Assembly (NCBI RefSeq): GCF_965204145.1
Contig: NZ_OZ241977.1
Coordinates: 2,319,356 to 2,383,355 of the forward strand
Origin: Candidatus Poriferisocius sp.
GTDB lineage: Bacteria; Actinomycetota; Acidimicrobiia; Acidimicrobiales; Bin134
Reading direction: 5' to 3'
Length of the DNA stretch: 64,000 bases
In this document: one piece after another, positions 38,297-52,600 of the stretch
Layout of the letters: each line of letters opens with the position of its first letter
Position numbering within the stretch: position 1 is the first letter of the stretch
Translations under genes and position numbers: made by a program
The notes under the pieces: generated by a model
What the model saw: the letters and a program-made list of their open reading frames with translations, nothing else
Database searches by the model: none
What the model was told of the DNA's origin: nothing

Positions 38297-38533
38297 TTGA
38301 ACTACTTATGGATATACTCACGGACTGTGACGAAGCGTCTGGTTGACATTGATGACGCCCTCCTGGCTGAGGTACGAGAGCTGATCGGTGTAGCCACGAT
38401 GAAAGAGGCCGTCAACACCGCTTTGCAGCAATTGCTCGACACCGAACTCCGCCGACAGCACTTGCGCCGACTTGAAACTGGCCGGGGAACAGACCTCGGC
38501 GATGACGAGATCATGCAGGGCGCATGGCGCTAA
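38297..38533 (+). CDS. vapB: Type II antitoxin, VapB-like
   Basis: 'RLVDIDDALLAEVRELIGVATMKEAVNTALQQL' matches the common VapB antitoxin N-terminus. The track start at 38297 is a TTG and the in-frame GTG at 38327 is more likely. 10-nt overlap with the PIN gene. Confidence 0.75.
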   Translation: MNYLWIYSRTVTKRLVDIDDALLAEVRELIGVATMKEAVNTALQQLLDTELRRQHLRRLETGRGTDLGDDEIMQGAWR

Positions 38534-38943
38534 ATCCCCTGTACCTTGCCGACAAGAGTGCCCTCGCCCGATTCGATCATCCGCCAGTAGGCCACCGCCT
38601 CGGCCCGCTCCTGGTTGACGGCATGATCGCCACCTGCCCGATCATCGACCTTGAAATCCTCTACAGCGCCCGGTCCCTCGCCGATTACGAGGCCATCCTC
38701 GCCGAGCGCCGCTCACTGGTGTCCTACCCCATCTCCGAGCATGTGACTGATCGGGCCATCGAAGTCCAGCACCAGCTAGCCCATCTCGGCCAGCACCGAA
38801 TACCCCTACCCGATCTCCTCATCGCCGCCGTGGCCGAACTCAACGAGGTCACCGTCCTGCACTATGACGCCGACTACGACCGCATCGCCTCCATAACCCG
38901 GCAACCCAGCGAATGGATAGCCCCCCGAGGCTCAATCCCATAA
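38524..38943 (+). CDS. vapC: PIN-domain ribonuclease toxin, VapC-like
   Basis: 139 aa. Acidic PIN residues occur in 'YLADKSA', 'IIDLEILY', 'LPDLLIAAVA' and 'HYDADYD'. Confidence 0.85.
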   Translation: MALNPLYLADKSALARFDHPPVGHRLGPLLVDGMIATCPIIDLEILYSARSLADYEAILAERRSLVSYPISEHVTDRAIEVQHQLAHLGQHRIPLPDLLIAAVAELNEVTVLHYDADYDRIASITRQPSEWIAPRGSIP

Positions 38944-39001
38944 TCCGCTCACCCAGCAAGGGCAGCAGGCCATTTCCCGGCAATCATCGCGTCTGCCCCA
39001 A

Positions 39002-39430
39002 TCAGACAGGCACTACTTCAACTACCAGGCTGCATCCCACGGCTGCCAGAGCCTTGTTGACCTGTCCGATGTGCGAACGGTGGTCTGGATTCACCAAGCG
39101 TCGCACTGCTGCCTCGCTGATACTCAAGCGACGGGCCAGTTCCACTTTGGTTACTTCCTGCTCTCTCATCGCTGAGTAGAGAGCTAGCTTGGCGGCAACC
39201 ACGGTTGGCACCGCCACTAGCTCCTGCTGCTCCACCGGCGTCCCCGGCGGCGGAACATCCCTACCGCTTTGCAGATACCCCGAAAGGGCAACGGCAAGAG
39301 CATCAGCGGCCATCTTCATGGCCTCAGCCCGATCTGGCCCGCCAGTGACAGCTTCAGGCACATCAGGAAAAGTAGCCACAAACCATCCATCGGCATCAGG
39401 GGTGAGGTCACAGGGATAGGCGTAGATCAC
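39002..39430 (-). CDS. hicB: HicB-family antitoxin with C-terminal HTH
   Basis: 142 aa. 'YAYPCDLTPDADGWFVATFPDVPEAVTGG' is the HicB fold. 'TKVELARRLSISEAAVRRLV' is the HTH. Confidence 0.85.
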   Translation of the reverse strand: MIYAYPCDLTPDADGWFVATFPDVPEAVTGGPDRAEAMKMAADALAVALSGYLQSGRDVPPPGTPVEQQELVAVPTVVAAKLALYSAMREQEVTKVELARRLSISEAAVRRLVNPDHRSHIGQVNKALAAVGCSLVVEVVPV

Positions 39431-39433
39431 GGT

Positions 39434-39658
39434 TCAGAACTCCTTTGGATCGATCCCCAATTGACGCAGCATCGCAGCCACCATGCCCTTTGAAAGCTCG
39501 CCCCGCTGAACGGTGGTAAACCGTTCTCCAATGTAGAGTCGCCCATGGCTGCCCTTCCCGTGTGCTGCATCAAAATGGAATTCCTGTCCGGTCTTGCGGG
39601 CATGCCTTCGGACCCTTCTGACGAACTCGCTGCCGTTGATGCTAGCAGTATCGTACAT
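39434..39658 (-). CDS. hicA: HicA-family mRNA interferase toxin
   Basis: ORF 39434..39829 trimmed to the internal ATG at 39658 (74 aa). Carries the 'GKGSHGRLY' HicA/YcfA motif. Its stop is 3 nt before the hicB start. Confidence 0.8.
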   Translation of the reverse strand: MYDTASINGSEFVRRVRRHARKTGQEFHFDAAHGKGSHGRLYIGERFTTVQRGELSKGMVAAMLRQLGIDPKEF

Positions 39659-39725
39659 AAATGTACGATTTTCAAATGGATACGACAGATTGATACGAAT
39701 TGCCCTTAGGAGTGCAGGAGAATAA
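39659..39725. promoter_or_regulatory. Divergent control region shared by hicAB and the giant operon
   Basis: 67-bp AT-rich gap. TACGA occurs at 39664, 39681 and 39694, including GATACGA x2 with a 13-bp period. A GGAG Shine-Dalgarno lies 5 nt before the GTG at 39726. Confidence 0.4.
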
Positions 39726-42700
39726 GTGGAGCCAGTTAGCCAAGACCGTTGGACAGGCATCAACCCGGCAAGGCTTGATGAAGAACTCCGTCCCAGCTTG
39801 AGGAACGTCGGGCTAGTGGGTGAACTCAACCTTTCCCTCGACGGAGACCTCTACGGCAAAGCCAGAAGCGCCAGTCGGCGACTGATCTCACACGAGAGTT
39901 GGCAAATAATGGCTGATTGTTCGGCCGCAACCGTCATATTCATGGTTGCTGAGGGCATACATCGGTATGACGGCGGCACCTTCTGGCCAAACATCTCGGT
40001 CGACGGCATCGACCGAAATAGAGTCGCAAGGGCGTTCTTCGAGTCCCTCAGTTCCCTGGGCTTAGAGACATTTCAGGCTGTCGTAGATGAAGAACGCGGA
40101 CTCCGAAATGTCACACCGATACTTCTTCACGGTGGCATTCCGGCCTACTGTGCCAAAGATGTCTGGCGGCAGCTGCTCGGTGCCATGCGAAGCGAGACAG
40201 GTGATGTCACCCACATGCTCTCGATCTGGCGGACCAGAGGATATCCCGGCCTGGACAAGCCAGTGGAACGGTTCCTCCGACACGGCGGAGCGTTTGCCGA
40301 GGATCTTCTGGCCCGAATGTGGCAGTGCGCCGAAGATGTTGCCGACATAGGCATTGAAGCCGCTCGCGAACTCGGCGGACAATTGCTTGCGCATGACGCC
40401 GGGCTACCCAACTACCTCGTTGAGAAACTCCTTGAGGAAAGGAGCATCGACATCCGGCGCGGCCCACGGCTGCCGAGACCACGAGTGCGCATTGACCCCT
40501 ATTCCAGCAGCGGACCCGAACTGGAGCTTCCGCCTGCCCCCGGCCACGATGGCTGTTGGATCCTGTCGGACACCCAAGGGCGTCCACGTCGCTTCAGCAT
40601 CTCGCGTCATGAGACGAGGGTCATACCCCTCAGCCGACCTACTACCTGGGACGTTTCATTTCAAGCAGAAGACACGGAGCGGATGTGGACTCTTGCGGGG
40701 ATGCCTGAAGCGCCGGCCTTCTTATTCTCAGATAACTGCGAGCTGGCAGGCAATCAGGCCAGCCTGCGTGGCACGTCGGTGTTGGTCCTCTGCCCCGCAA
40801 CCACACGGTTTCTGAGAGACACTGACGAAACCCCAATACCAGAACTGGAGGACCTGCCGCCCCTCACTGGAAACTGGTCAAAGTGGCATGTGCGTTCCCT
40901 AGATCTAACTGATCTGGATGCCCTCGTTGTCGTCTGGCCCGCTCAACCAGAGCTCGGACAGGAGGAGATCAGGCAGAGAGTGTCGGTCGCTTCTTCCGTG
41001 GCGCGACCTCACATTTGCTCCGAACCATTGCGCGGTGTGCTGGCCTCCGGCGGCCGCCCGGTCTTCTCCCAACCGCCCCTACTACATGTAGTCTTAGGCC
41101 GGACTGCTCCGGGGGCATGGCGTGTTCGCTTTCGCCCACTCAACGGCCAACCCAAAGCTGTGCCTCTTTCAGATCTCACGCAGCACAGCGACGGATTTGA
41201 CACCGCTCCTTTGTTCTCTGACCAGGTGGTGAGCACAGGAACGCTTGAAGTCGTAGGTCCGTTGGGTTCTGACCTTCGGGAGGAACTTGCCGTTGTTCCT
41301 GGACTGCACTTTGGGTCCCCCGACCGTGTGGTTGATCCCTTCGAGCATGTAGAAGTGGAAGTTGCGGCCAGTGTGGCTCTAGATTCCAGGGAACAATTGC
41401 GGGCCATCCTTACTTTTCCGCCGGGATGCGACTCGCAAGAATTGCTCGCCAATCCAACCGGTGGTGGTGTGGATCTACACCACTCGATTCCGCGGCTCCT
41501 TTGGATGGTACGCCGGAGTGACTCCACCCATGGTTCGTTCGGGCACGAGGCCGTTCGGATCAGCCTTGATGAACTAGAGATGGGCAAAATCGAAGCCATT
41601 GATGTCCGGGTCCGTAGGGAGGAGCCTCTCGTTCTCGAACTTTGGGCATCCGATGAGACGATTCAGACTGCCAAAGCAAATGCCAAGGGGCCAGAGGGCC
41701 GCTGGTCATTCCCTTTGGCAGAATTTTTGGATACGGCGCGCCATGCAAACGTCAATCGCCTCTACTTCAAACTACGGGCCGGTTCCGTGGTCGCGAATGC
41801 GGCGGTCATCGAAACCGCCTTCGAAGTCTCCAATCTCAGATGCGAGAGTGAGGTTGACTCCTCAGAAGACACCACCTTTTGCGCTTTGAACTGGACCGAG
41901 AATCGCAACTTCAGCAATCGTGAAATTCGGATGTGGTCACAACATCGACTGTGGGCACCCCCAATTTGTATTCCGATAGACGACTACGCAGCAGGGCAAT
42001 TCGACTTTTTGTGTCAGTCGAAACTTCCCGCTGGCCCGTATCTCCTAGAGTTAACAATCAGGGACACGTGGGGCCCTCTGCCGATTCGACCGACGCTTGA
42101 CGCCCCTCATGTCATAGAAGTGGACATCGGCGACGACATCAATCATGCCCAACATCTCAACCAGCTCAACCGTGCCGAGCCTCTGAACGTCTTAGAGTTG
42201 GCCGTTGCCGGTCAGATCCAATCCTTGAACAATTTGGAAACAGAAGAGATCTACAGCGAACTCAATATGACTCTAGATGTCCTCTACTCATCGGGGAACA
42301 ACACCGCTTCAATAAGAACACTCCGTGGACCATTACTCGCTCTTGAATTCAGCAACCCTAGTCGTCTCGCGGAACATTTGTCAGAGAGTTGGGGAGAATA
42401 TGACTCAGGATCAAACGAACACCTCTTTGCGTTATTGCCTGGAATTCTAAACCAGCCTCCTGGAGACGAAGATCGGCTCCATGGCATCCACAATAGACTG
42501 TGGAGAACTAATCCATTAGCTGCTGCGGCTTTCGACCGTCTCGTGTCCGGCGACATAGAGACAGCCCAACGCTGGGAACAACACACCGGATGGAACCCGT
42601 TTGGAAACACGGACAGCAATGAGCTATTCCCCGGAGGGCCAATTCCCCAACCTCTAGGCGACCGATCTCCAGAACACCTTACAGAACTGGAGCAAGCAAT

Positions 42701-43073
42701 ACCGATCTCTGGAAGCGGACGGCTGCTGTATCACGGGTTCTTGTCGGCGATCTTTGACTTTCTTGCGGGAACATGGCATAACCGCGACCTGATTACCGAA
42801 TGGCGTTCACCACTCGGATTAGTGCTGAATAACGATCACTGGATGACTGAAGGCCAGCGCGGTATATTGGCTTGCCTCCAGCCAGATTCCTCCTCACCTG
42901 CGTGGTACCGCTTTCCTCAAGACCTCCAAGCGGTCTCGTTCCATTTGTTGGATTTTCCAGCTAGTCATGAGCTAGCAGCTAGAACGTTAGCAGAAGCTAT
43001 GGAATTCGCTCCTCAGCTGACATTGCGCTGTCTAATCCTCGCAATAGCTCTCCATCACTCCGCAAATTTCTAG
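39726..43073 (+). CDS. Large hypothetical protein (1115 aa), partner of the helicase; possible DruH analogue
   Basis: Uninterrupted 3.3-kb ORF with a GTG start and a GGAG SD. I found no Walker, nuclease, methyltransferase or TM motif by eye. Ends 29 nt before the helicase gene. Confidence 0.7.
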   Translation: MEPVSQDRWTGINPARLDEELRPSLRNVGLVGELNLSLDGDLYGKARSASRRLISHESWQIMADCSAATVIFMVAEGIHRYDGGTFWPNISVDGIDRNRVARAFFESLSSLGLETFQAVVDEERGLRNVTPILLHGGIPAYCAKDVWRQLLGAMRSETGDVTHMLSIWRTRGYPGLDKPVERFLRHGGAFAEDLLARMWQCAEDVADIGIEAARELGGQLLAHDAGLPNYLVEKLLEERSIDIRRGPRLPRPRVRIDPYSSSGPELELPPAPGHDGCWILSDTQGRPRRFSISRHETRVIPLSRPTTWDVSFQAEDTERMWTLAGMPEAPAFLFSDNCELAGNQASLRGTSVLVLCPATTRFLRDTDETPIPELEDLPPLTGNWSKWHVRSLDLTDLDALVVVWPAQPELGQEEIRQRVSVASSVARPHICSEPLRGVLASGGRPVFSQPPLLHVVLGRTAPGAWRVRFRPLNGQPKAVPLSDLTQHSDGFDTAPLFSDQVVSTGTLEVVGPLGSDLREELAVVPGLHFGSPDRVVDPFEHVEVEVAASVALDSREQLRAILTFPPGCDSQELLANPTGGGVDLHHSIPRLLWMVRRSDSTHGSFGHEAVRISLDELEMGKIEAIDVRVRREEPLVLELWASDETIQTAKANAKGPEGRWSFPLAEFLDTARHANVNRLYFKLRAGSVVANAAVIETAFEVSNLRCESEVDSSEDTTFCALNWTENRNFSNREIRMWSQHRLWAPPICIPIDDYAAGQFDFLCQSKLPAGPYLLELTIRDTWGPLPIRPTLDAPHVIEVDIGDDINHAQHLNQLNRAEPLNVLELAVAGQIQSLNNLETEEIYSELNMTLDVLYSSGNNTASIRTLRGPLLALEFSNPSRLAEHLSESWGEYDSGSNEHLFALLPGILNQPPGDEDRLHGIHNRLWRTNPLAAAAFDRLVSGDIETAQRWEQHTGWNPFGNTDSNELFPGGPIPQPLGDRSPEHLTELEQAIPISGSGRLLYHGFLSAIFDFLAGTWHNRDLITEWRSPLGLVLNNDHWMTEGQRGILACLQPDSSSPAWYRFPQDLQAVSFHLLDFPASHELAARTLAEAMEFAPQLTLRCLILAIALHHSANF

Positions 43074-43102: not shown

Positions 43103-46100
43103 TTGCAAGCTAAAGTGTCACTAAATCCTCTAGGGGCTTCAGATGCTATTCATAAGTCTTACAGACGCTACCTCCTGTCTAGACACGCGCCAAATAGTGC
43201 CAACCTCATGGATGATTTTCAAAAGGCACTTGATGGTTCTTTCCCTTTAACAAAGGGACCACTTCTGCAGGCCTCAGCACCGTTTGAACCAGGCGTTAGC
43301 ATAAGAGAACTCGTTGATTCCGGAACCCTGAATCATGAGTTTGTGAAACTTGGATCCGATGCATTTCCCATTGAACGACCTCTCCACCATCATCAAGAAG
43401 AGGCCATTAGAAAAATCATAGCTGGTCGCAACCTGGTTGTGGCAACTGGTACAGGGTCCGGAAAAACAGAATGCTACCTATTCCCAATTCTAGACCATCT
43501 GCTACAAGAACAAGCAGATGGAACGCTAAAGGAATCCGGTGTCAGGGCAATGCTTCTATATCCCATGAATGCTCTTGCTAACGATCAAATGAAACGTCTA
43601 AGAAGTATTCTAAGTTTTTTCCCTGACGTGACCTTTGGCCGTTTTGTTGGTGACACAAGAGAGCGCCATCAAGAAGCACTTGAAATCTATAAACAGCGTT
43701 TTGGAGCAGATCCACTATCAAACGAGTATATTTCGCGTGAGCAAATTCGGGAGACACCACCCCATATATTGCTGACCAACTACGCAATGCTTGAACGCTT
43801 ACTTCTGTATCCATCGGATACTTCTTTGTTTGATGGATCAACTGGAAGACATTGGAAGTTTGTCGTCCTAGACGAAGTGCATGTCTATAACGGTGCCCAA
43901 GCTGCGGAAATTGCGATGCTCTTGCGCCGGGTACGAGATCGAGTTCATCAAAGCGAGAAAGGCCGTATCCAATACATTGGCACATCGGCCACACTTGCTA
44001 GCAGTGATGATGACTTTCCTCGATTGGCAAAGTTTGCCGAGATTCTCTTTGATGAAACACTTGAATATGACAAGGCCGACTCTTCTCGCCAAGATATCGT
44101 GCTTGCTCGTCACCAGCCCTTAGTTCAAAAACCTGCCACTTGGAGTGCAGAAGCCGAAGACTTTTCTACTCTATTGGCTGCCCTAGATCAATCCTCTTCA
44201 CCTCAAGAAATGCAGCAACTTTTGAGCACCCGCGGTGCGCCAGTAGGTCAGGCCGACACTCCAACGCTGATGCTCCTTGGGGATATGCTGACATCCGAAC
44301 ACCATGTTGTCCTCTTACAGGATCTATTGGGAAGAGGGTCCATCGATCTTGATTCAGCTGCTAGACAAGTCTTTGGGCATGCTGCCGAGAGGAATCGCCA
44401 TCTTGTAGAACTTGTTGACATCTGTAGCCGTGTTCAATCGCCCTCTACAGATATGCCGCTTATTCCCGCCCGCTACCACTTTTTTGTGCGGGCACTTGAG
44501 GGCGCTTTCGTCTGCCAGTCACCTTCGCATCCAGAGGGGGAATCTCACCTCCTGCTAACCAGACACGAACAGTGTCCAGCCTGCAACGAAGAGGGGAGGC
44601 AATCGAAAATGTTCGAGTCAGGAGTATGTGTAAAGTGCGGCGCCACCTACATCCTCGGAATCACCGAAGAAGATGAAGAGGGCAATACTTATTTGCGCTG
44701 GCCCGGTCCCAATGACCTCGATCTCCGTTATCTCCTCGTCTCCGAAGGCAGCTTGGAGGCCGAGGATGATGAAGATGAGCAAGCGGTAGTGCAGGATCAA
44801 GACGTTGACGTGAACATTGACGTACGCAGGCTTTGCACAAGCTGCGGATCTCTCGCCGAAGGAACAACGTCATCCTGCAATTGCGGCCAGCATCTGGCCA
44901 TACCTGTCACCGCCGCCCATCCGACCCGACGTGGCGAACCTCTGCGCCGGTGCATCGCCTGCACAGGCCGCAGCCCTGCTCCCATCGTGCTCCGATTTGA
45001 GACAGGGCAAGATGCCCCTGTCTCCGTCATCGCCACAGCCCTGCACCAGGCCTTACCCCCCAGCCAAGATGACAAGTCAGCAACACTCATAGGCGAGGGG
45101 CGTAAGTTGCTTTCGTTTTCAGACTCCCGCCAAGACGCCGCGTTTTTCGCTCCCTACCTTGATCGTACCTACTCTCAGGCGATCCAGCGTCGACTTATCT
45201 GGATGACTGCCGAGCGACTCGCTGACCAAGAACCTCGATTTGATGATCTGGTGATCCCCATCCGCAAAGAGGCTGAGCGCCAGTTCGTCCTTGACGAGGA
45301 CGACGGTGCCATGCGCAATAGTAATCGGGTACGGACGTGGCTCATGCGGGAGATCTTGGCCGTGGACCGCCGCCAAAGCCTCGATGGTGTCGGCCTCGCC
45401 GAGATCTCCTTTGCCCTGCCAAGTGGTACCCAGGTTCCTGAACCACTTCTCAATCTCGGCTTCTCACAAGACGAGGCCCTCGATTTGGCCCGAGTCCTGA
45501 TTGAGACTTTGCGGCTACAGGCAGCTGTACACCTTCCAGAAGGAGTTGACATAGAGGATCCTGCCTTTGCGCCCCGAAATGTCGTGACAAACGTGCGTGG
45601 TGAACAATCAGGCCGACGCATACTTTCCTGGCTCCCTACTAGAGGGCTCAATCGTCGCCTGGACTACTTGAACAAACTACTGGCACGAAAGTCGGTTACC
45701 GCCGACTCCACAGAGTTGCTGAAGAACATATGGTTTGAGTGGCTGAGCGCCCCTGGTAGCCCCTGGTTGAAGGTCCTGAGACCAGAAGCCGACAGGCGCC
45801 ATGGTCAGCTATACGCTATTGATCCTGAACGGATCATCATCCGACCAGCCTCACAAGAACGACCCGCCTTTAGGTGCGACACATGTCGCCAAGTTTGGTG
45901 GCGATCGGTCGACGGCGTCTGTCCGTCGTATCAGTGCACAGGAACTCTAAAGCCTACTCAGCCCGCAACTACAGACCACTACCACCACCTTTACACCTCT
46001 CTTCGTCCCATCGGCATGCAGGTGGAGGAGCACACCGGGCAATTGAGTGCAGATTTCGCCGCGGAGCTCCAGCAGAAGTTCGTCGATGGCGAGGTCAATG

Positions 46101-47908
46101 TCTTGAGCTGTTCGACGACCTTCGAACTAGGGGTCGATGTAGGAGAGGTTCAGGGCATTCTCATGCGCAACGTGCCTCCTTCGCCAGCAAACTACATCCA
46201 GAGAGCTGGTCGGGCCGGGCGTCGCGCTGGCTCGCCAGCGTTGACCGTGGCCTTCGCCCAGCGGCGCAACCATGATCTGCATTATTTCCGCAATCCTGAA
46301 GATCTGGTCGACGGTCAGATGAGCGTTCCCATTATCTCGCTAGGCAACGACCGGATCATCCGCCGCCACATCCACGCTTTGGCCTTCTCTGCTTTCGAGC
46401 GCGCCCACGTCGATTCTGGCGGCGACTGGCACCGAACTGTTAACTCATTCTTCGCCGCTAAGGACTACACGGGCATAGCTCCGGTGGAGGCCTTCATCAA
46501 TTGGCTCCGGTCACGCCCAACTGACATTGGAGATGCCATTGGACGCATCACCCCATCAGCCCAAGTGGCATCCGAACTCGGAATTGCCGACTGGGAATGG
46601 GTCGATGCGCTGGTGGAGCCAAGCGACGAGCATCCCGATCATGGCTGGCTTCAACGAGCCAAGAGAGAGGTTGTGGACGATCTTGAGGGAATCGGACGAG
46701 AACTCGACGAGGTCGAACAACAGATCAGCGAATACCGATCGGAAGGACAGAGCCAAAAGGCTGAGAATCTATCCGGATATCAAAGGGCCCTACTTCGCAT
46801 GGAAAGGACGCTACGAGAGCGTCGCCTTATCGATTTCCTCGCCCAACGAGTTATCCTGCCGAAATACGGTTTCCCTGTCGATACCGTCTCACTTGATGTG
46901 TCGCGCGAGGGTAGCCCGCAAGCGGCAAAACTCGACCTCTCCCGCGATCTGCGCTTAGGCATCACAGACTACGCCCCTGGTTCACAGACCGTAGCCAACG
47001 GAGCCCTGTGGGAGACCGCCGGGCTGCGAATCCCACCAGGGGAAGCTCTTTTCAAACACAGATGGGCAACCTGCTCCAGTTGTGGAGCCTTCCGGACTCG
47101 CTGGTCGTCCGGAGGTGACGAACTAGATAATTGCGAAAACTGCCCAGTCCCCACACCTACCTCTGATGGTGGGATTTTTGTGATTCCCATGTTTGGCTTT
47201 ATTGGCCAACGCTGTGACGAAAAGCCAGGCGAGTCCCGCCCGCCTAAGGCTGGCTTCTCCCAATTCCACTTCGACAACTACATGTCTGAAGAACCTCCTC
47301 CTTTTCAATCCGTGAACGTCAACGACTGGCAGGTTCGGTTTCGCACCAGCCCCCAAGGACGAATCACAGCTATAAACCAAGGACCAGGTGGACGCGGGTT
47401 TCGGATCTGCTTTTCCTGTGGATATGCCGAGTCCGCTCCCATACGAGGTGCAAGGCCAGACCGCGAGCACCCACGTCCAAACTCCCAACGAAATTGCAAC
47501 GGTAACCTGACCCATGCATCGCTAGGCCACCAGTTCCTTACCGACGTAGTGGAAGTGCAGTTGTTGGTGCCAATGACACACCAACAGGCGCGCAGCACGC
47601 TTTATGCCCTGTTGGAAGGATGCCCAGCAATCGGAATATCCCGAAGCGATGTAAATGTCTCACTGCACCCTGGCCAAGATGGCCAATCCTCACTGGTACT
47701 GTTTGACGCCGTCCCAGGAGGGGCGGGCCACTCCAAACGAATTGCTGATCGACTGCCCGAACTTCTCCGTGCAGCTCGACGAGTCGTCGAGAACTGCGAG
47801 TGTGGTGAAGACTCCAGCTGCTACGGATGCCTACGCTCTTACGCCAATCAGCGTCACCACGATGAGCTAGTCCGCGGCGACGCGTTAGAAATCTTGTCCT
47901 TTTGTTGA
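43103..47908 (+). CDS. SF2 DExH-box helicase fused to a C-terminal DUF1998/MZB-type zinc-binding domain (DruE-like)
   Basis: TTG start with AGGAG 7 nt upstream. Motif I 'GTGSGKT' (nt 43448-43468), motif II 'DEVH' (43871-43882), 'SAT' (43985-43993), motif IV-like 'LLSFSDSRQDAAFFA' (45107-45151) and motif VI 'QRAGRAGR' (46199-46222). C-terminal Cys cluster 'CECGEDSSCYGCL' (47795-47833). Confidence 0.9.
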   Translation: MQAKVSLNPLGASDAIHKSYRRYLLSRHAPNSANLMDDFQKALDGSFPLTKGPLLQASAPFEPGVSIRELVDSGTLNHEFVKLGSDAFPIERPLHHHQEEAIRKIIAGRNLVVATGTGSGKTECYLFPILDHLLQEQADGTLKESGVRAMLLYPMNALANDQMKRLRSILSFFPDVTFGRFVGDTRERHQEALEIYKQRFGADPLSNEYISREQIRETPPHILLTNYAMLERLLLYPSDTSLFDGSTGRHWKFVVLDEVHVYNGAQAAEIAMLLRRVRDRVHQSEKGRIQYIGTSATLASSDDDFPRLAKFAEILFDETLEYDKADSSRQDIVLARHQPLVQKPATWSAEAEDFSTLLAALDQSSSPQEMQQLLSTRGAPVGQADTPTLMLLGDMLTSEHHVVLLQDLLGRGSIDLDSAARQVFGHAAERNRHLVELVDICSRVQSPSTDMPLIPARYHFFVRALEGAFVCQSPSHPEGESHLLLTRHEQCPACNEEGRQSKMFESGVCVKCGATYILGITEEDEEGNTYLRWPGPNDLDLRYLLVSEGSLEAEDDEDEQAVVQDQDVDVNIDVRRLCTSCGSLAEGTTSSCNCGQHLAIPVTAAHPTRRGEPLRRCIACTGRSPAPIVLRFETGQDAPVSVIATALHQALPPSQDDKSATLIGEGRKLLSFSDSRQDAAFFAPYLDRTYSQAIQRRLIWMTAERLADQEPRFDDLVIPIRKEAERQFVLDEDDGAMRNSNRVRTWLMREILAVDRRQSLDGVGLAEISFALPSGTQVPEPLLNLGFSQDEALDLARVLIETLRLQAAVHLPEGVDIEDPAFAPRNVVTNVRGEQSGRRILSWLPTRGLNRRLDYLNKLLARKSVTADSTELLKNIWFEWLSAPGSPWLKVLRPEADRRHGQLYAIDPERIIIRPASQERPAFRCDTCRQVWWRSVDGVCPSYQCTGTLKPTQPATTDHYHHLYTSLRPIGMQVEEHTGQLSADFAAELQQKFVDGEVNVLSCSTTFELGVDVGEVQGILMRNVPPSPANYIQRAGRAGRRAGSPALTVAFAQRRNHDLHYFRNPEDLVDGQMSVPIISLGNDRIIRRHIHALAFSAFERAHVDSGGDWHRTVNSFFAAKDYTGIAPVEAFINWLRSRPTDIGDAIGRITPSAQVASELGIADWEWVDALVEPSDEHPDHGWLQRAKREVVDDLEGIGRELDEVEQQISEYRSEGQSQKAENLSGYQRALLRMERTLRERRLIDFLAQRVILPKYGFPVDTVSLDVSREGSPQAAKLDLSRDLRLGITDYAPGSQTVANGALWETAGLRIPPGEALFKHRWATCSSCGAFRTRWSSGGDELDNCENCPVPTPTSDGGIFVIPMFGFIGQRCDEKPGESRPPKAGFSQFHFDNYMSEEPPPFQSVNVNDWQVRFRTSPQGRITAINQGPGGRGFRICFSCGYAESAPIRGARPDREHPRPNSQRNCNGNLTHASLGHQFLTDVVEVQLLVPMTHQQARSTLYALLEGCPAIGISRSDVNVSLHPGQDGQSSLVLFDAVPGGAGHSKRIADRLPELLRAARRVVENCECGEDSSCYGCLRSYANQRHHDELVRGDALEILSFC

Positions 47909-50276: not shown

Positions 50277-50681
50277 TCAGAACTGGTTGAACGAGGCGGC
50301 GGCGTCGCCGGGGCGCATCACGAAGAACTCCATGCCGTCGGATCCGCAGGTGAAGGAGTACTCGTGGTTGGCGGCCAGGATGACCGAGTCCTTCGGCCCC
50401 AGCTCCATGGATGGCCCGTCGGCGCCGTTCGGCCACACCTCACACCCGCCCGACACCACAATCAGCAGCTCGTTCTGGTCGTGGCTGTGGGGAGGGACGT
50501 GGTAGCCGGCGGGCATGGTGGTGTACTGGCACCAGAATCCCCCCTCGCCTCGAGCCACGTGCTTGCGCCCGGCGCCCAGCTCCTTGGCTTTTTCGATCAG
50601 CTCTTTGGGGGCGTTGGGGTTCTTGGACTCATCGACCCAGTCGATGTCGTCGAATATCAGCACTCTTGGCTCCGTGCTCAT
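50277..50681 (-). CDS. Cupin domain protein
   Basis: 134 aa with 'HVPPHSHDQNELLIVVSG'. Confidence 0.7.
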   Translation of the reverse strand: MSTEPRVLIFDDIDWVDESKNPNAPKELIEKAKELGAGRKHVARGEGGFWCQYTTMPAGYHVPPHSHDQNELLIVVSGGCEVWPNGADGPSMELGPKDSVILAANHEYSFTCGSDGMEFFVMRPGDAAASFNQF

Positions 50682-50691
50682 TGTTCCTCCG

Positions 50692-51708
50692 TTACTGGGC
50701 CGGGGGCCCGTGGACGAGTTTGGCGAACTCGGTGGCGAACAGCTCCGAGGTGCCCGACTGGTGGGTGGCCCGCCATTGCCGCCACGGGCACACGTCGTCC
50801 CAGCGGTGCAACACCTCGAAGTCCAAGTCGGCGACCACCAGGCCCTCGGTGTCGCTTCCCTCGGCGTAGATGTGGCTGAAATCGGGGAAGTCGGGGCCGC
50901 AGATGAGGCTGTGCCCGGCGTAGTTGGCGGGCAGCGCCCCCTCGAAGCTGTCCTCCAAGCTCTCCCCGAGGTCGATGCCGCCTACCTGGTTCGCCGAGAT
51001 GGTGAAGACGAAGTTCTCCTGCCCCCGGGTGGCGGCCACCCGGCGCATGGACTCCACCTTGTCGGGCCCGCCCGCGAAGGCGGCGGTGGGATTGACGATG
51101 ATCCTGGCCCCTTGGAGGGCCAGAAGGCGGCTGCCCTCGGGGTTCAGCCAGAAGTCGTAGCAGATCTGCACCCCGATGGGGCCGTAGCGGGTTTCGAAGA
51201 CGTCCAGGCTGGTGCCGGGTCGAAACGTCACCCCCTCAGTGACAAATGGGAGCGAGCCCAGGTGCAGCTTTCGATAGGTCCCGAGGATTCCCTCGGGTCC
51301 GATCACCGCGGCGGCGTTGTAGAGGACATCGGGATCGTCGGGATCCTGCTCGATCATGCCCACCACCAGATACATGTCGTGGTCGGCGGACAGCCGGGCC
51401 AGGGCTTCAGTCGACGGCCCGGGCACGGTCTCGGCCAGCTTCCGGTGCAAGTCGCAGGGCTCACCCAGACGCTCACAATCGTCGCAGTGGATCGCCCCGG
51501 TCAGCGCCTCTTCGGGAAATACCAGCAAGCCCACCCCCGCCTCGGCGGCCTCGGCAATCCAATCGGTGATCTTGTCCAGGTTGGCGGCCACGTCGGCGGG
51601 AACGGGGGTGAAGTCCACCGCTCCCGCCCGCAGCCGGGTCTCGTAGCCGGAATAGCGCTCAGGGATCACGGTCGTATTATCGCCTGTTTGAGCCGACTCA
51701 GCCTCCAC
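50692..51708 (-). CDS. Carbon-nitrogen hydrolase (nitrilase superfamily)
   Basis: 'LLVFPEEALTG', 'YRKLHL' and 'GVQICYDFW' provide the E-K-C triad contexts. The start at 51708 is a GTG overlapping the upstream gene, and a GTG at 51669 is an alternative. Confidence 0.8.
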   Translation of the reverse strand: MEAESAQTGDNTTVIPERYSGYETRLRAGAVDFTPVPADVAANLDKITDWIAEAAEAGVGLLVFPEEALTGAIHCDDCERLGEPCDLHRKLAETVPGPSTEALARLSADHDMYLVVGMIEQDPDDPDVLYNAAAVIGPEGILGTYRKLHLGSLPFVTEGVTFRPGTSLDVFETRYGPIGVQICYDFWLNPEGSRLLALQGARIIVNPTAAFAGGPDKVESMRRVAATRGQENFVFTISANQVGGIDLGESLEDSFEGALPANYAGHSLICGPDFPDFSHIYAEGSDTEGLVVADLDFEVLHRWDDVCPWRQWRATHQSGTSELFATEFAKLVHGPPAQ

Positions 51709-52600
51709 CCGGTGAGGTCTTGGCTGCGGAGCGGACTTTGGGGGCGTTTTTCCAGTGGGGTACGCCGTGCTCCTCGGTGGCGATCCACCACTCGCCGTTG
51801 GTGATGGAGGCCCAGTGGGAGTGGTTGAGCTGGTGGAGGGTGAAGCACGCCGACAGGGCGGTGTTGAAGCCTTGGGCGTCCATGGTCTGGTTCACCGCCT
51901 CTTTGACCAGCAACGCGGCCATGGTGGGCACCGCGGCGATGCGCTGGGCGAACTCCAGGGTCTGCTCTGACAGGGTCTCGTTGGGGAACACCTTGGCCAC
52001 CATGCCCAGTGCGTGGGCCTCGTGGACGTCGATGGAGTCGCCGGTGAGCAGCAGCTCCTTGGTCTTGCGGGGGCCGAATTCCCACGGGTGGGCGAAGTAC
52101 TCCACACCCATCATGCCCAGCCGGGTGCCCACCACATCGGCGAAGGAGGCGTCCTCGGCACCCACGATCAGATCGCAACTCCACATGAGCATCAGCCCGG
52201 CGGCCAGCACCGGCCCCTGCACCTGGGCGATGGTGATCTTGCGGAGGTTGCGCCACCGCTTGGTGTTCTCGAAGAAGTAGTGCCACTCCTGGAGCATCAG
52301 CTTCTCCGACCCCCGGCGCTGCCCGCCGTTGATCTGCCAGGTGGGGTGCTGGTTGGGGCCGGGCATGCGCTCCTCGATGCTCTCCTTGGTGCCCATGTCG
52401 TGGCCGGCCGAGAACATCGGTCCCACTCCGCCCAGGATCACCACCCGCACGTCGTCGTCGGCCTCGGCCACCAGGAAGGCCTCGTTGAGCTCCACCAGCA
52501 TCCCTCGGTTCTGGGCGTTGCGGGCCTCGGGGCGGTTCAGCATGATGCGGGCGACCTTGCCGTCGTCCAGCGTCTCGTAGGTCAGGTACTGGTAGTCCAT
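51698..52600 (-). CDS. Enoyl-CoA hydratase/isomerase family protein
   Basis: ORF trimmed to the ATG at 52600 ('MDYQYLTYETLDDGKVARIMLNRPEARNA'). Confidence 0.85.
   Translation of the reverse strand: MDYQYLTYETLDDGKVARIMLNRPEARNAQNRGMLVELNEAFLVAEADDDVRVVILGGVGPMFSAGHDMGTKESIEERMPGPNQHPTWQINGGQRRGSEKLMLQEWHYFFENTKRWRNLRKITIAQVQGPVLAAGLMLMWSCDLIVGAEDASFADVVGTRLGMMGVEYFAHPWEFGPRKTKELLLTGDSIDVHEAHALGMVAKVFPNETLSEQTLEFAQRIAAVPTMAALLVKEAVNQTMDAQGFNTALSACFTLHQLNHSHWASITNGEWWIATEEHGVPHWKNAPKVRSAAKTSPGGG

Follow-up and report, generated by a model that had tools for sequence, protein, structure and literature searches.

The window analysed here, a stretch of 64,000 nucleotides from the genome of the sponge-associated Acidimicrobiales bacterium Candidatus Poriferisocius, contains a cassette of two genes. 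The first (39726..43073, + strand) encodes a protein of 1115 residues. It is followed in the same direction, with 29 nt between its stop and the next start, by the gene under study (43103..47908, + strand), which is open through 1601 codons, begins with a TTG start codon and is preceded 8 nt upstream by AAAGGAG. The two genes have a GC content of 54-56%, compared with 64% for the window, and form a low-GC islet. The cassette is adjoined by VapBC and HicAB-like genes, and the flanks also code for metabolic enzymes. Among the flanking genes in the window no further defence gene adjoins the cassette, and a search for mobile-element borders of the islet (tRNA, integrase, flanking direct repeat) found none. 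Both reading frames are intact and of full length, and align with homologues from end to end. In RefSeq, the product of the second gene is annotated in a shortened form and its partner with only 614 residues; both gene models are probably too short and are corrected by the full reading frames given here.

We assign 43103..47908 to DruE, the motor of a previously unannotated two-gene Druantia type III-B anti-phage system whose partner is the divergent upstream druH, and give this reading a probability of about 85%. The protein is a DruE in identity and architecture. In PADLOC it matches DruE3 (1.1e-188, 628 bits) and DruE1 (8.4e-185, 615 bits), and the DruE models lie about 500 bits above every other model, the next non-DruE family being BrxHI with 99 bits; the weaker matches comprise BrxHI/BrxHII, DpdJ and DrmA. 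The hits in a sequence search of the PDB were 9tu7 (E. coli DruE, 1.3e-94) and MrfA (1e-25). The E. coli III-A enzyme, a protein of 2104-2108 residues solved by cryo-EM (9TU7-9TUC; Himpich et al. 2026; also Hu et al. 2026), served as the reference, and the hhalign comparison with it is colinear (probability 100%, 28% identity), with residues 2-1601 aligned to 7-1716 of 2104. Pfam recognizes DEAD at residues 97-301 (8.6e-25), Helicase_C at 967-1041 (8e-12) and MZB at 1510-1577 (1.7e-14). Motifs I-III in RecA1, motifs IV-VI in RecA2 and a Cys4 cluster in the MZB domain are those of the YprA/MrfA-like SF2 helicases of the DUF1998 family. The alignment with the DruE/YprA family, which the original prediction had recommended as a check, thus confirmed a DruE/YprA-like protein.

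The C-terminus lies 25 residues past the last MZB cysteine, at the equivalent of E. coli position 1716 of 2104, and the two C-terminal PLD-like (nuclease-like) domains of the E. coli III-A enzyme, which are dispensable there, are absent. Type III-B has been defined by DruH together with a compact DruE without C-terminal PLD-like domains (Bell et al. 2025, PMC12458937; Himpich et al. 2026). Since the protein ends after MZB/DUF1998 and lacks the PLD domains, it has the published III-B form; the assignment is made by domain and gene content, with a compact DruE and DruH as its sole partner. The type III-B clade was found in at least 598 species.

The weaker PADLOC matches could also be read as the mark of a helicase from another YprA-based system, such as ARMADA, DISARM, Dpd, BRIGADE or TALON. 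ARMADA helicases have the same insertions, and Druantia adjoins genes for an SNF2 protein and a methyltransferase at two related loci (L001 and L002). Such an origin is very improbable in view of the lead of the DruE models by some 500 bits, the absence from the islet of a BrxHII-like helicase, a PglX-like methyltransferase, DrmB/DrmC and a deazaguanine gene, and the DruH-like character of the conserved neighbour. Membership in ARMADA or DISARM was ruled out, as no SNF2, methyltransferase or DrmB/DrmC genes are found as neighbours.

The AF2 model of the helicase covers residues 1-1150 (pLDDT 90.8, pTM 0.89). Its best Foldseek matches are MrfA structures (6znp, 6znq; E 5e-13), with a target-normalized TM-score of 0.43-0.47 for an alignment that is spread over about 1100 columns although the MrfA target has only about 700-750 residues. 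No DruE entry was returned for the model from the fold library, which extends to 8 April 2026, and neither PDB sequence searches nor fold searches in the same library revealed a solved III-B structure. MrfA/YprA of Bacillus subtilis (6ZNP, 6ZNQ, 6ZNS) has in common with this DruE the N-terminal strand, RecA1, RecA2, the OB fold, the connector and the four-cysteine MZB domain. However, it comprises only about 750 residues, lacks the WH/FHD, dZBD and Cap insertions and the OB zinc inserts and, unlike DruE, acts in DNA repair together with the MrfB exonuclease. That the gene encodes a housekeeping repair helicase of the MrfA/YprA/SftH type, or is a decaying remnant like yjiV of E. coli K-12, is the least probable of the readings considered. 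Among released solved structures MrfA comes closest in fold, SftH-type helicases reportedly stand in for DruE, and the RefSeq models are shortened, the partner to 614 residues. Yet both reading frames are of full length and align end to end with homologues, the catalytic motifs and zinc ligands are all invariant, and the 850 extra residues are Druantia-type domains; no MrfB-like exonuclease gene is a neighbour, and the cassette forms a low-GC islet beside toxin-antitoxin genes.

The helicase core was originally described as split by insertions, and the wide separation of DEAD (97-301) from Helicase_C (967-1041) bears this out. The N-terminal region and RecA1 (aa 1-340; 43103..44122, + strand, as are all features below; AF2 pLDDT >85) contain the Pfam DEAD domain with motif I (GTGSGKT, 116-122), motif II (DEVH, 257-260) and motif III (SAT, 295-297), which are invariant in 73 homologues. 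RecA1 is followed by a helical domain (aa 345-447; 44135..44443), modelled as six helices between residues 351 and 443, colinear with E. coli DruE and named WH, FHD or BrxA-like in the literature. Next comes a beta-rich zinc-binding domain, dZBD or ZBM_L (aa 455-635; 44465..45007), which AF2 models as all-beta (pLDDT 79-94), which aligns with the E. coli dZBD and which holds three predicted zinc sites and an acidic tract. The first part of RecA2 (aa 638-705; 45014..45217) has a modelled strand at 669-673 and a helix at 676-705. Its motif IV, LLSFSDSRQ (SFSDSRQ at 671-677, nt 45113-45133), matches LLTFTDSRQ of E. coli with high confidence, and F672, D674 and R676 are invariant. A Cap/DBD is inserted in RecA2 (aa 706-955; 45218..45967; pLDDT 87-97); it can be aligned colinearly with the E. 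coli Cap, at low hhalign confidence. The second part of RecA2 (aa 956-1075; 45968..46327), with the Pfam Helicase_C domain, contains motif V (TTFELGVD, 1005-1012) and motif VI (QRAGRAGR, 1033-1040), both invariant in homologues, and MZB/DUF1998 (aa 1510-1577; 47630..47833; Pfam 1.7e-14) closes the series with the zinc site C1565/C1567/C1573/C1576. The positions originally given for motifs I-VI are exact, and their assignments hold on profile alignment.

The order of the accessory domains is that of solved DruE, namely WH/FHD, a double zinc domain, Cap/DBD in RecA2, eWH, OB with two zinc motifs, and MZB, and the secondary structure of the AF2 model agrees with it over residues 1-1150. What had been seen as insertions are the known DruE domains WH/FHD, dZBD, Cap/DBD, OBZ and MZB. 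Bell et al. (2025, PMC12458937) described one arrangement common to all YprA-like helicases of defence systems. RecA1 is followed by a helical domain, RecA2 opens with a beta-barrel zinc module that has two or more CxxC pairs and encloses another domain ending in a zinc module, the OB fold bears two zinc inserts, and DUF1998 is present. [quoted passage not shown] However, their partners differ (BrxHII-like helicase, PglX-like methyltransferase, DruA-D, DruM/F/G), they usually possess a C-terminal nuclease-like domain, and they lack the ribbon C578-C594 described below. The original view that it is unusual for a single motor to bear this many zinc modules is therefore not supported, as the same pattern has been published for the whole group. 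This is the outcome for which the original prediction had itself reserved the judgement that the observation would be valid but not unusual. The stretched core and the zinc-rich clusters are genuine, and the literature already documents them as the usual architecture of the DruE family.

The cysteine positions listed in the original prediction are all right, and cysteine pairs are far more frequent than expected by chance. DruE contains 12 C-x(1-4)-C pairs compared with 2.39 ± 1.45 in shuffled sequences, and none of 5000 shuffles reached 12. The inventory was incomplete, however, since C617/C620, C471/H476 and C1465/H1456 had been missed. With these residues included, seven zinc sites are predicted from sequence patterns and co-variation. 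All are kept in close homologues, the cluster cysteines being 100% conserved in 59-73 homologues of 45-67% identity. In 98 more distant cluster representatives, from a search of representative proteins for which residues 440-1060 of DruE served as the query, most cluster cysteines are 97-100% conserved, and six of the seven sites exceed 85%. The exception is the facultative site C471/H476/C491/C494 (44513..44584), which aligns with C437/C442/C467/C469 of E. coli. C471, C491 and C494 are jointly present in 55 representatives and jointly absent from 41 (H476 was outside this count); in close homologues H476 does not vary. C509/C512 (44627..44638), 100% conserved in 99 sequences and aligned with E. 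coli C479/C482, and C617/C620 in the motif CIAC (44951..44962), likewise 100% conserved and aligned with C586/C589, appear to be the two halves of a universal site. From the joint loss of C471/C491/C494 and the universality of C509/C512/C617/C620, it follows that the ligand sets are likely C471-H476-C491-C494 and C509-C512-C617-C620. A single site C491/C494/C509/C512 (nt 44573-44638), as originally proposed, was ruled out by the co-variation across representatives, which divides these residues between two sites.

The ribbon C578/C581/C592/C594 (44834..44884) is conserved to 98%, 98%, 98% and 86%, respectively, in the 98 representatives. It is present in the DruE of C. butyricum and absent from those of E. 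coli, Rhizobium, Nostoc and Ralstonia; by this comparison, the predicted ribbon is specific to the III-B clade. The ribbon C925/C928/C940/C945 (45875..45937) at the C-terminal end of the Cap is 100% conserved. It occurs in the DruE-family helicases of Nostoc, Ralstonia and C. butyricum and is absent from the III-A enzymes of E. coli and Rhizobium, a distribution suggesting that it is probably ancestral and was then lost in III-A. The Nostoc and Ralstonia proteins that have it in common with this DruE are two longer DruE-family helicases, encoded on plasmids and having other upstream genes. In the OB fold, the first predicted site, C1324/C1327/C1344/C1347 (47072..47143; 97-100% conserved), aligns with E. 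coli C1423/C1426/C1439/C1442 at hhalign confidence 9, and the second, C1436/C1439/H1456/C1465 (47408..47497; each residue kept in 100% of 99 sequences), aligns with C1526/C1529/C1571. The MZB site is 99-100% conserved and aligns with C1681/C1683/C1687/C1690, which are essential in E. coli DruE (Himpich et al. 2026). Five of the seven predicted sites thus align residue for residue with the five zinc motifs that cryo-EM revealed in the E. coli enzyme (Himpich et al. 2026). The putative sites C509/C512/C617/C620, both OB-fold sites and the MZB site are universal in the compared sequences, and the modules can be sorted into universal, probably ancestral but lost in III-A, and III-B-specific ones. 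The most probable role of all seven clusters is to hold these small domains together as structural zinc staples.

Further resemblances to E. coli DruE concern the DNA-handling elements. The acidic tract EAEDDEDEQAVVQDQDVDV (aa 552-570; 44756..44812), located where the original prediction had placed it, contains the conserved residues D556, E557 and D558. In the hhalign comparison it faces the acidic E. coli run SEDEDNDELDNN, and the E. coli lock residues 505-526 face residues 535-559 at low confidence. The tract, at or beside the lock position, probably corresponds to the 'lock' loop of E. coli. F1257-P1258 (46871..46876), invariant in 59 homologues, is the equivalent of the E. coli 'wedge' F1327-P1328 (hhalign confidence 9). 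Besides being colinear to the end of the MZB domain, the two enzymes agree in domain order, in five zinc sites, in the helicase motifs, in the F-P wedge and in having an acidic loop at the lock position. They differ in the two added Cys4 ribbons of the III-B protein (C578-C594 and C925-C945), in the clamp residue H1698 of E. coli, which is not kept and has R1584 in its place, and in the Cap, which is about 130 residues shorter here. Most of the four-helix dimerization subdomain (DD/PD) of the Cap, which is essential in E. coli DruE, is apparently missing: residues 678-759 (82 aa) of E. coli correspond to about 33 residues with two predicted helices, at an alignment confidence of 1-3. The subdomain appears to be reduced, which suggests that III-B DruE may not dimerize in the manner of the E. 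coli enzyme.

DruE is a YprA/MrfA-family SF2 DNA helicase in which the constant accessory domains of the family are placed between the two RecA lobes or built into them. The helical WH/FHD and the beta-rich dZBD lie between RecA1 and the first RecA2 strand, the duplex-binding Cap within RecA2, and the extended winged helix, the OB domain (which bears two zinc inserts) and the MZB domain after RecA2. By homology with the solved E. coli III-A DruE, the enzyme would be loaded onto exposed single-stranded DNA and then unwind in the 3'-to-5' direction. The dZBD/Cap platform would support the duplex, with the displaced strand running between the Cap and the OB domain and the OB/MZB lid shutting over the tracking strand. 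F1257 may serve as the wedge and the acidic loop at about 535-570 as a DNA-mimicking lock. Arguing against a III-A-like mechanism is the apparent loss of most of the essential dimerization bundle, as judged from a low-confidence alignment.

The partner of DruE is more difficult to recognize. As a single sequence it had no match in Pfam, PADLOC, NCBIfam or the PDB, and its family alignment had none in PADLOC or the PDB. The DruH models themselves did not match it at E<=1 (NCBIfam YjiT_fam, NF038336) or E<=10 (PADLOC DruH), whereas YjiT_fam recognizes E. coli DruH with 977 bits. Precomputed Pfam annotation is absent from the partner family, and the III-A DruH family has PF27205 and PF27201. By direct search, then, the partner is not recognizably similar to DruH of the E. 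coli III-A system. Its position is conserved: a co-directional upstream reading frame of about 900-1500 residues lies beside DruE at most of 80 related loci, and about 40 partner homologues share contigs with DruE homologues. The AF2 model (pLDDT 83.7) has a helical domain at either terminus and an array of beta-sandwiches between them, at about 250-800, with generic Ig/Fn3/macroglobulin arrays as its top Foldseek matches; the published DruH layout is a helical domain, an Ig-like array and a helical domain. In hhalign, the partner family gave no signal when E. coli DruH was used as a single sequence (probability 0.1-0.2%). When the III-A DruH family was the target, a narrow partner profile reached a probability of 81% (E 1.2e-5) and a broadened one 95.1% (E 3.3e-8) over 667 colinear columns. 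The partner family evolves very fast. The upstream protein (39726..43073) is a very divergent, remote DruH homologue of the III-B kind with DruH architecture, a homology seen by profile-profile comparison only.

A two-gene system of this type has been studied in Mycolicibacterium smegmatis, where DruH (1132 aa) and DruE (1667 aa) defend against phages (Li & He 2026, PMC13316683). Reported features are the blocking of phage DNA circularization, abortive infection and a minor tail protein as the trigger (PMC13316683). Both systems are actinobacterial, their proteins are of similar size, and in each the DruE is built from DEAD, Helicase_C and DUF1998 and has no nuclease domain. The equivalence is indirect, via the published description and a Mycobacterium sp. 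pair of the same family that matches both window proteins (39% identity for DruE, HMM E 6e-39 for the partner).

Target recognition or partner docking had been proposed as functions of the zinc modules, roles with which published data agree only loosely. The first finds a parallel in the dZBD and DBD of E. coli DruE, which form a platform that holds the duplex, but this platform is sequence-independent, and of the five zinc motifs no more than two touch DNA (Himpich et al. 2026). As for the second, DruH and DruE of M. smegmatis interact directly, with predicted contacts at R823, V857 and R859 of DruE (PMC13316683), whereas E. coli III-A DruH and DruE form no stable complex (Himpich et al. 2026). 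This difference, the confinement of C578-C594 to III-B-like DruE with about 98% conservation there, and the very fast evolution of the partner would suit zinc modules that were added in the lineage for its own target recognition or partner docking, with C578-C594 and C925-C945 serving the divergent DruH. We regard this as unlikely. Five of the seven sites are common to E. coli DruE and the sixth to other DruE-family helicases; the M. smegmatis contacts are not cysteines and, by residue number, probably lie in the Cap region and not in a cysteine cluster; and invariant cysteines facing a fast-evolving partner suit a structural role better than a role in specificity. It is equally doubtful that III-B DruE, lacking both PLD domains and apparently most of the dimerization bundle, works differently from III-A, with the two ribbons supporting a direct, obligate DruH-DruE complex, as reported from M. 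smegmatis, in place of the homodimer. If this were true, the III-B zinc ribbons would belong to a surface that serves a fast-evolving DruH sensor for docking or activation.

The DruE-type reading leaves the picture of the family unchanged, and its value lies mostly in annotation; the assignment of seven predicted zinc sites in the III-B clade to individual residues offers leads useful to work on III-B. Short SftH-type helicases are reported to be able to replace DruE (Li & He 2026, PMC13316683), and the need for the insertions in III-B is therefore questionable.

The druE gene is an open reading frame of 1601 codons (window 43103-47908, + strand) that begins with TTG, 8 nt downstream of the ribosome-binding site AAAGGAG. 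In its translation all the motifs lie where the original prediction had placed them: motif I GTGSGKT at aa 116-122, DEVH at 257-260, SAT at 295-297, SFSDSRQ at 671-677, TTFELGVD at 1005-1012 and QRAGRAGR at 1033-1040, together with the acidic tract at 552-570. Pfam assigns DEAD to residues 97-301, Helicase_C only to 967-1041 and MZB/DUF1998 (the MrfA zinc-binding domain) to 1510-1577; the helicase core therefore spans about 950 residues, as had been proposed. For an AlphaFold2 model of residues 1-1150 (73 input sequences, pLDDT 90.8, pTM 0.89), MrfA is the best match among the released solved structures. The alignment is drawn out across about 1100 columns with a target of only about 700-750 residues; this is the stretched core in structural form.

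The protein is a DruE helicase. The PADLOC DruE models match it with E values of 1e-188 and 8e-185, about 500 bits above every other defence helicase, and a PDB sequence search retrieved E. coli DruE (9tu7, 2108 aa, E 1.3e-94), a second helicase (9wae, 1970 aa) and MrfA (6znp, E 1e-25). The E. coli locus used for comparison (L001), a plasmid-borne Druantia III-A, has genes for a DruE of 2104 aa and a DruH of 1119 aa, the latter annotated as STY4851/ECs_5259 family. The profile built from the window family matches E. coli DruE with a probability of 100% (E 6.6e-92), residues 2-1601 being colinear with 7-1716. E. coli DruE continues for a further 388 residues that form two PLD-like domains, whereas the window DruE ends just past MZB.

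The insertions are known domains of the defensive YprA-like helicases. [quoted passage not shown] 2025, PMC12458937), RecA1 is followed by a BrxA-like helical domain, and RecA2 begins with a beta-barrel domain carrying two or more CxxC motifs. Inside RecA2 lies a MarR-like domain, "usually" with another zinc module near its C-terminus, and an OB fold with two zinc-bearing inserts precedes DUF1998. [quoted passage not shown] 2026). A second structure determination of E. coli DruE has been published by Himpich et al. (2026). The window DruE comprises WH/FHD (aa 345-447), dZBD (455-635), the first part of RecA2 with motif IV (638-705), Cap/DBD (706-955), the second part of RecA2 (956-1075), eWH (about 1080-1262), OBZ (about 1263-1505) and MZB (1510-1577). 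The architecture is family-wide, with 699 clusters (50% identity) matched at E<=1e-30 by the insertion region on its own; it had already been published and, in its III-A form, solved. The earlier view that the zinc modules are unusual finds no support.

DruE contains 32 cysteines in 12 close C-x(1-4)-C pairs, a number reached by none of 5000 shuffles (2.4 ± 1.4), and their clustering is non-random. The original prediction placed its cysteines correctly but overlooked C617/C620; it also overlooked two pairs that fill in further sites, C471/H476 and H1456/C1465. In the profile alignment, five predicted zinc sites match E. coli DruE residue for residue: C471/H476 + C491/C494 (C437/C442 + C467/C469 in E. 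coli), C509/C512 + C617/C620 (C479/C482 + C586/C589), C1324/C1327/C1344/C1347 (C1423/C1426/C1439/C1442), C1436/C1439/(H1456)/C1465 (C1526/C1529/C1571) and C1565/C1567/C1573/C1576 (C1681/C1683/C1687/C1690). By contrast, C578/C581/C592/C594 and C925/C928/C940/C945 have no counterpart in E. coli DruE. It is a mildly new prediction that III-B DruE carries seven zinc sites, not five.

Conservation of all sites is strong within the clade of the window DruE, reaching 100% in 59-73 homologues of 45-67% identity. Among 98 representatives (34-60% identity), C925-C945 is conserved in 100%, C578/C581/C592 in 98% and C594 in 86%. In aa 471-620 (window 44513-44962), C471/C491/C494 are jointly present in 55 and jointly absent from 41 representatives, whereas C509/C512/C617/C620 never vary. 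Because of this co-variation, the dZBD likely holds a facultative site, C471-H476-C491-C494, and a universal one, C509-C512-C617-C620; C491/C494 and C509/C512, previously grouped as one cluster, would belong to separate sites. The facultative site is missing from the C. butyricum and Ralstonia DruE. The survey was extended to further DruE-family proteins from plasmids. The Cap-end ribbon C925-C945 occurs in the longer Nostoc and Ralstonia helicases, whose upstream genes differ from that of the window, and in the III-B-like C. butyricum protein; it was not found in the III-A DruE of E. coli and Rhizobium, and because of this distribution it looks ancestral and lost in III-A. Among the proteins compared, C578-C594 is confined to III-B-like ones; this clade-specific site is also mildly new.

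The acidic tract aligns, with low confidence, to SEDEDNDELDNN, a likewise acidic stretch of E. coli DruE. The lock loop of the E. coli enzyme, residues 505-523 (deletion 510-526), falls a little further upstream, at about aa 535-559, and overlaps the start of the tract, again with low alignment confidence. In E. coli the lock imitates the bound tracking strand and its deletion abolishes defence (Himpich et al. 2026). The E. coli wedge F1327-P1328 corresponds to the invariant F1257-P1258. The clamp is conserved less well: W1480 lies opposite the aromatic F1385 (low alignment confidence) and H1698 is replaced by R1584. The mechanism of these elements in the window DruE is inferred by homology. 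The dimerisation bundle (678-759), essential in E. coli, appears reduced, which is mildly new as well: it aligns, with low confidence, to no more than about 33 residues, for which two helices are predicted. III-B DruE may not dimerise as the E. coli enzyme does.

The partner gene (39726-43073, + strand, 1115 aa) stops 29 nt upstream of druE. Sequence searches with its product, profile searches included, gave no match in Pfam, PADLOC, NCBIfam or the PDB. About 40 homologues are detectable, sharing contigs with DruE homologues; in loci L002 and L003 the partner lies upstream of DruE. An iterative HMM enlarged the family from 52 to 71 ORFs of the retrieved loci, including the C. butyricum partner. 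Direct methods did not match E. coli DruH to this family. In a family-to-family comparison with DruH, a narrow profile gave a probability of 81% (E 1.2e-5), and a broadened one gave 95.1% (E 3.3e-8) across 667 colinear columns. Evolution is far more rapid in the DruH-like partner than in DruE, as seen in L004 (3783-6992), L019 and the partner ORFs of L005-L084: it took 2-4 HMM iterations to reach the partners where DruE has 28-34% identity (gut Bacillota, C. butyricum). Both genes seem to be under-called in RefSeq. The RefSeq partner model has only 614 aa (WP_419848793.1), whereas homologues align across 99% of the 1115-aa ORF; its DruE (WP_419848794.1, 1566 aa) starts at M36, skipping window 43103-43207, and residues 7-35, an N-terminal region belonging to the fold, are kept in homologues.

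DruH and a compact DruE without PLD domains define subtype III-B (Bell et al. 2025, PMC12458937; Himpich et al. 2026), and in the sponge-associated actinobacterium studied here the pair makes up a III-B system that had gone unrecognised, which is mildly new. In M. smegmatis an actinobacterial DruH-DruE pair of the III-B kind is experimentally active, the two proteins interact directly and short SftH-type helicases are reported to be able to replace DruE (Li & He, PMC13316683). If this is true, the M. smegmatis assay does not require the large insertions of DruE, in conflict with the results of the lock and dimerisation-domain deletions in E. coli.

In this Candidatus Poriferisocius genome (order Acidimicrobiales), druE and its partner have 54-56% GC, compared with 64% across the window. 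They lie within an islet of about 10 kb (about 38.0-47.95 kb), where GC is 46-60% and that of the flanks about 65%. The islet also holds VapBC and HicAB-like genes (weak hits) and has metabolic genes on both sides. The two toxin-antitoxin pairs directly precede the Druantia genes (38297-39829): VapB (38297-38533, +) and a PIN/VapC toxin (38524-38943, +), then a HicB-like antitoxin (39002-39430, -) and a weak HicA-like ORF (within 39434-39829, -), both with Pfam hits below the cut-off. A search for mobile-element boundaries turned up neither a tRNA nor an integrase nor flanking repeats. A 429-aa ORF without a Pfam match (50515-51804, +) lies downstream of amidohydrolase and SDR genes.

A species-genome scan revealed DruE relatives in at least 598 species, including Actinomycetota, Chloroflexota, Bacillota, Spirochaetales and one Methanosarcinales archaeon. 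In most of 80 retrieved loci, DruE is directly preceded by an ORF of about 900-1500 aa that runs in the same direction. Several seeming exceptions reflect crude ORF calling or contig ends, and the partner HMM found a partner ORF ending beside DruE in several loci first scored as having none. In a metagenomic locus (L002:13586-21004), a III-B DruH-DruE pair is followed by genes for an SNF2 helicase and an Eco57I-like methyltransferase, the same arrangement as behind E. coli Druantia III-A (L001:12338-18534), where these genes have been called ARMADA II (Bell et al., PMC12458937); unlike in both loci, the window Druantia genes lack such neighbours. A DruH-like/DruE pair in a Methanosarcinales MAG (L019) suggests transfer of the pair between domains.
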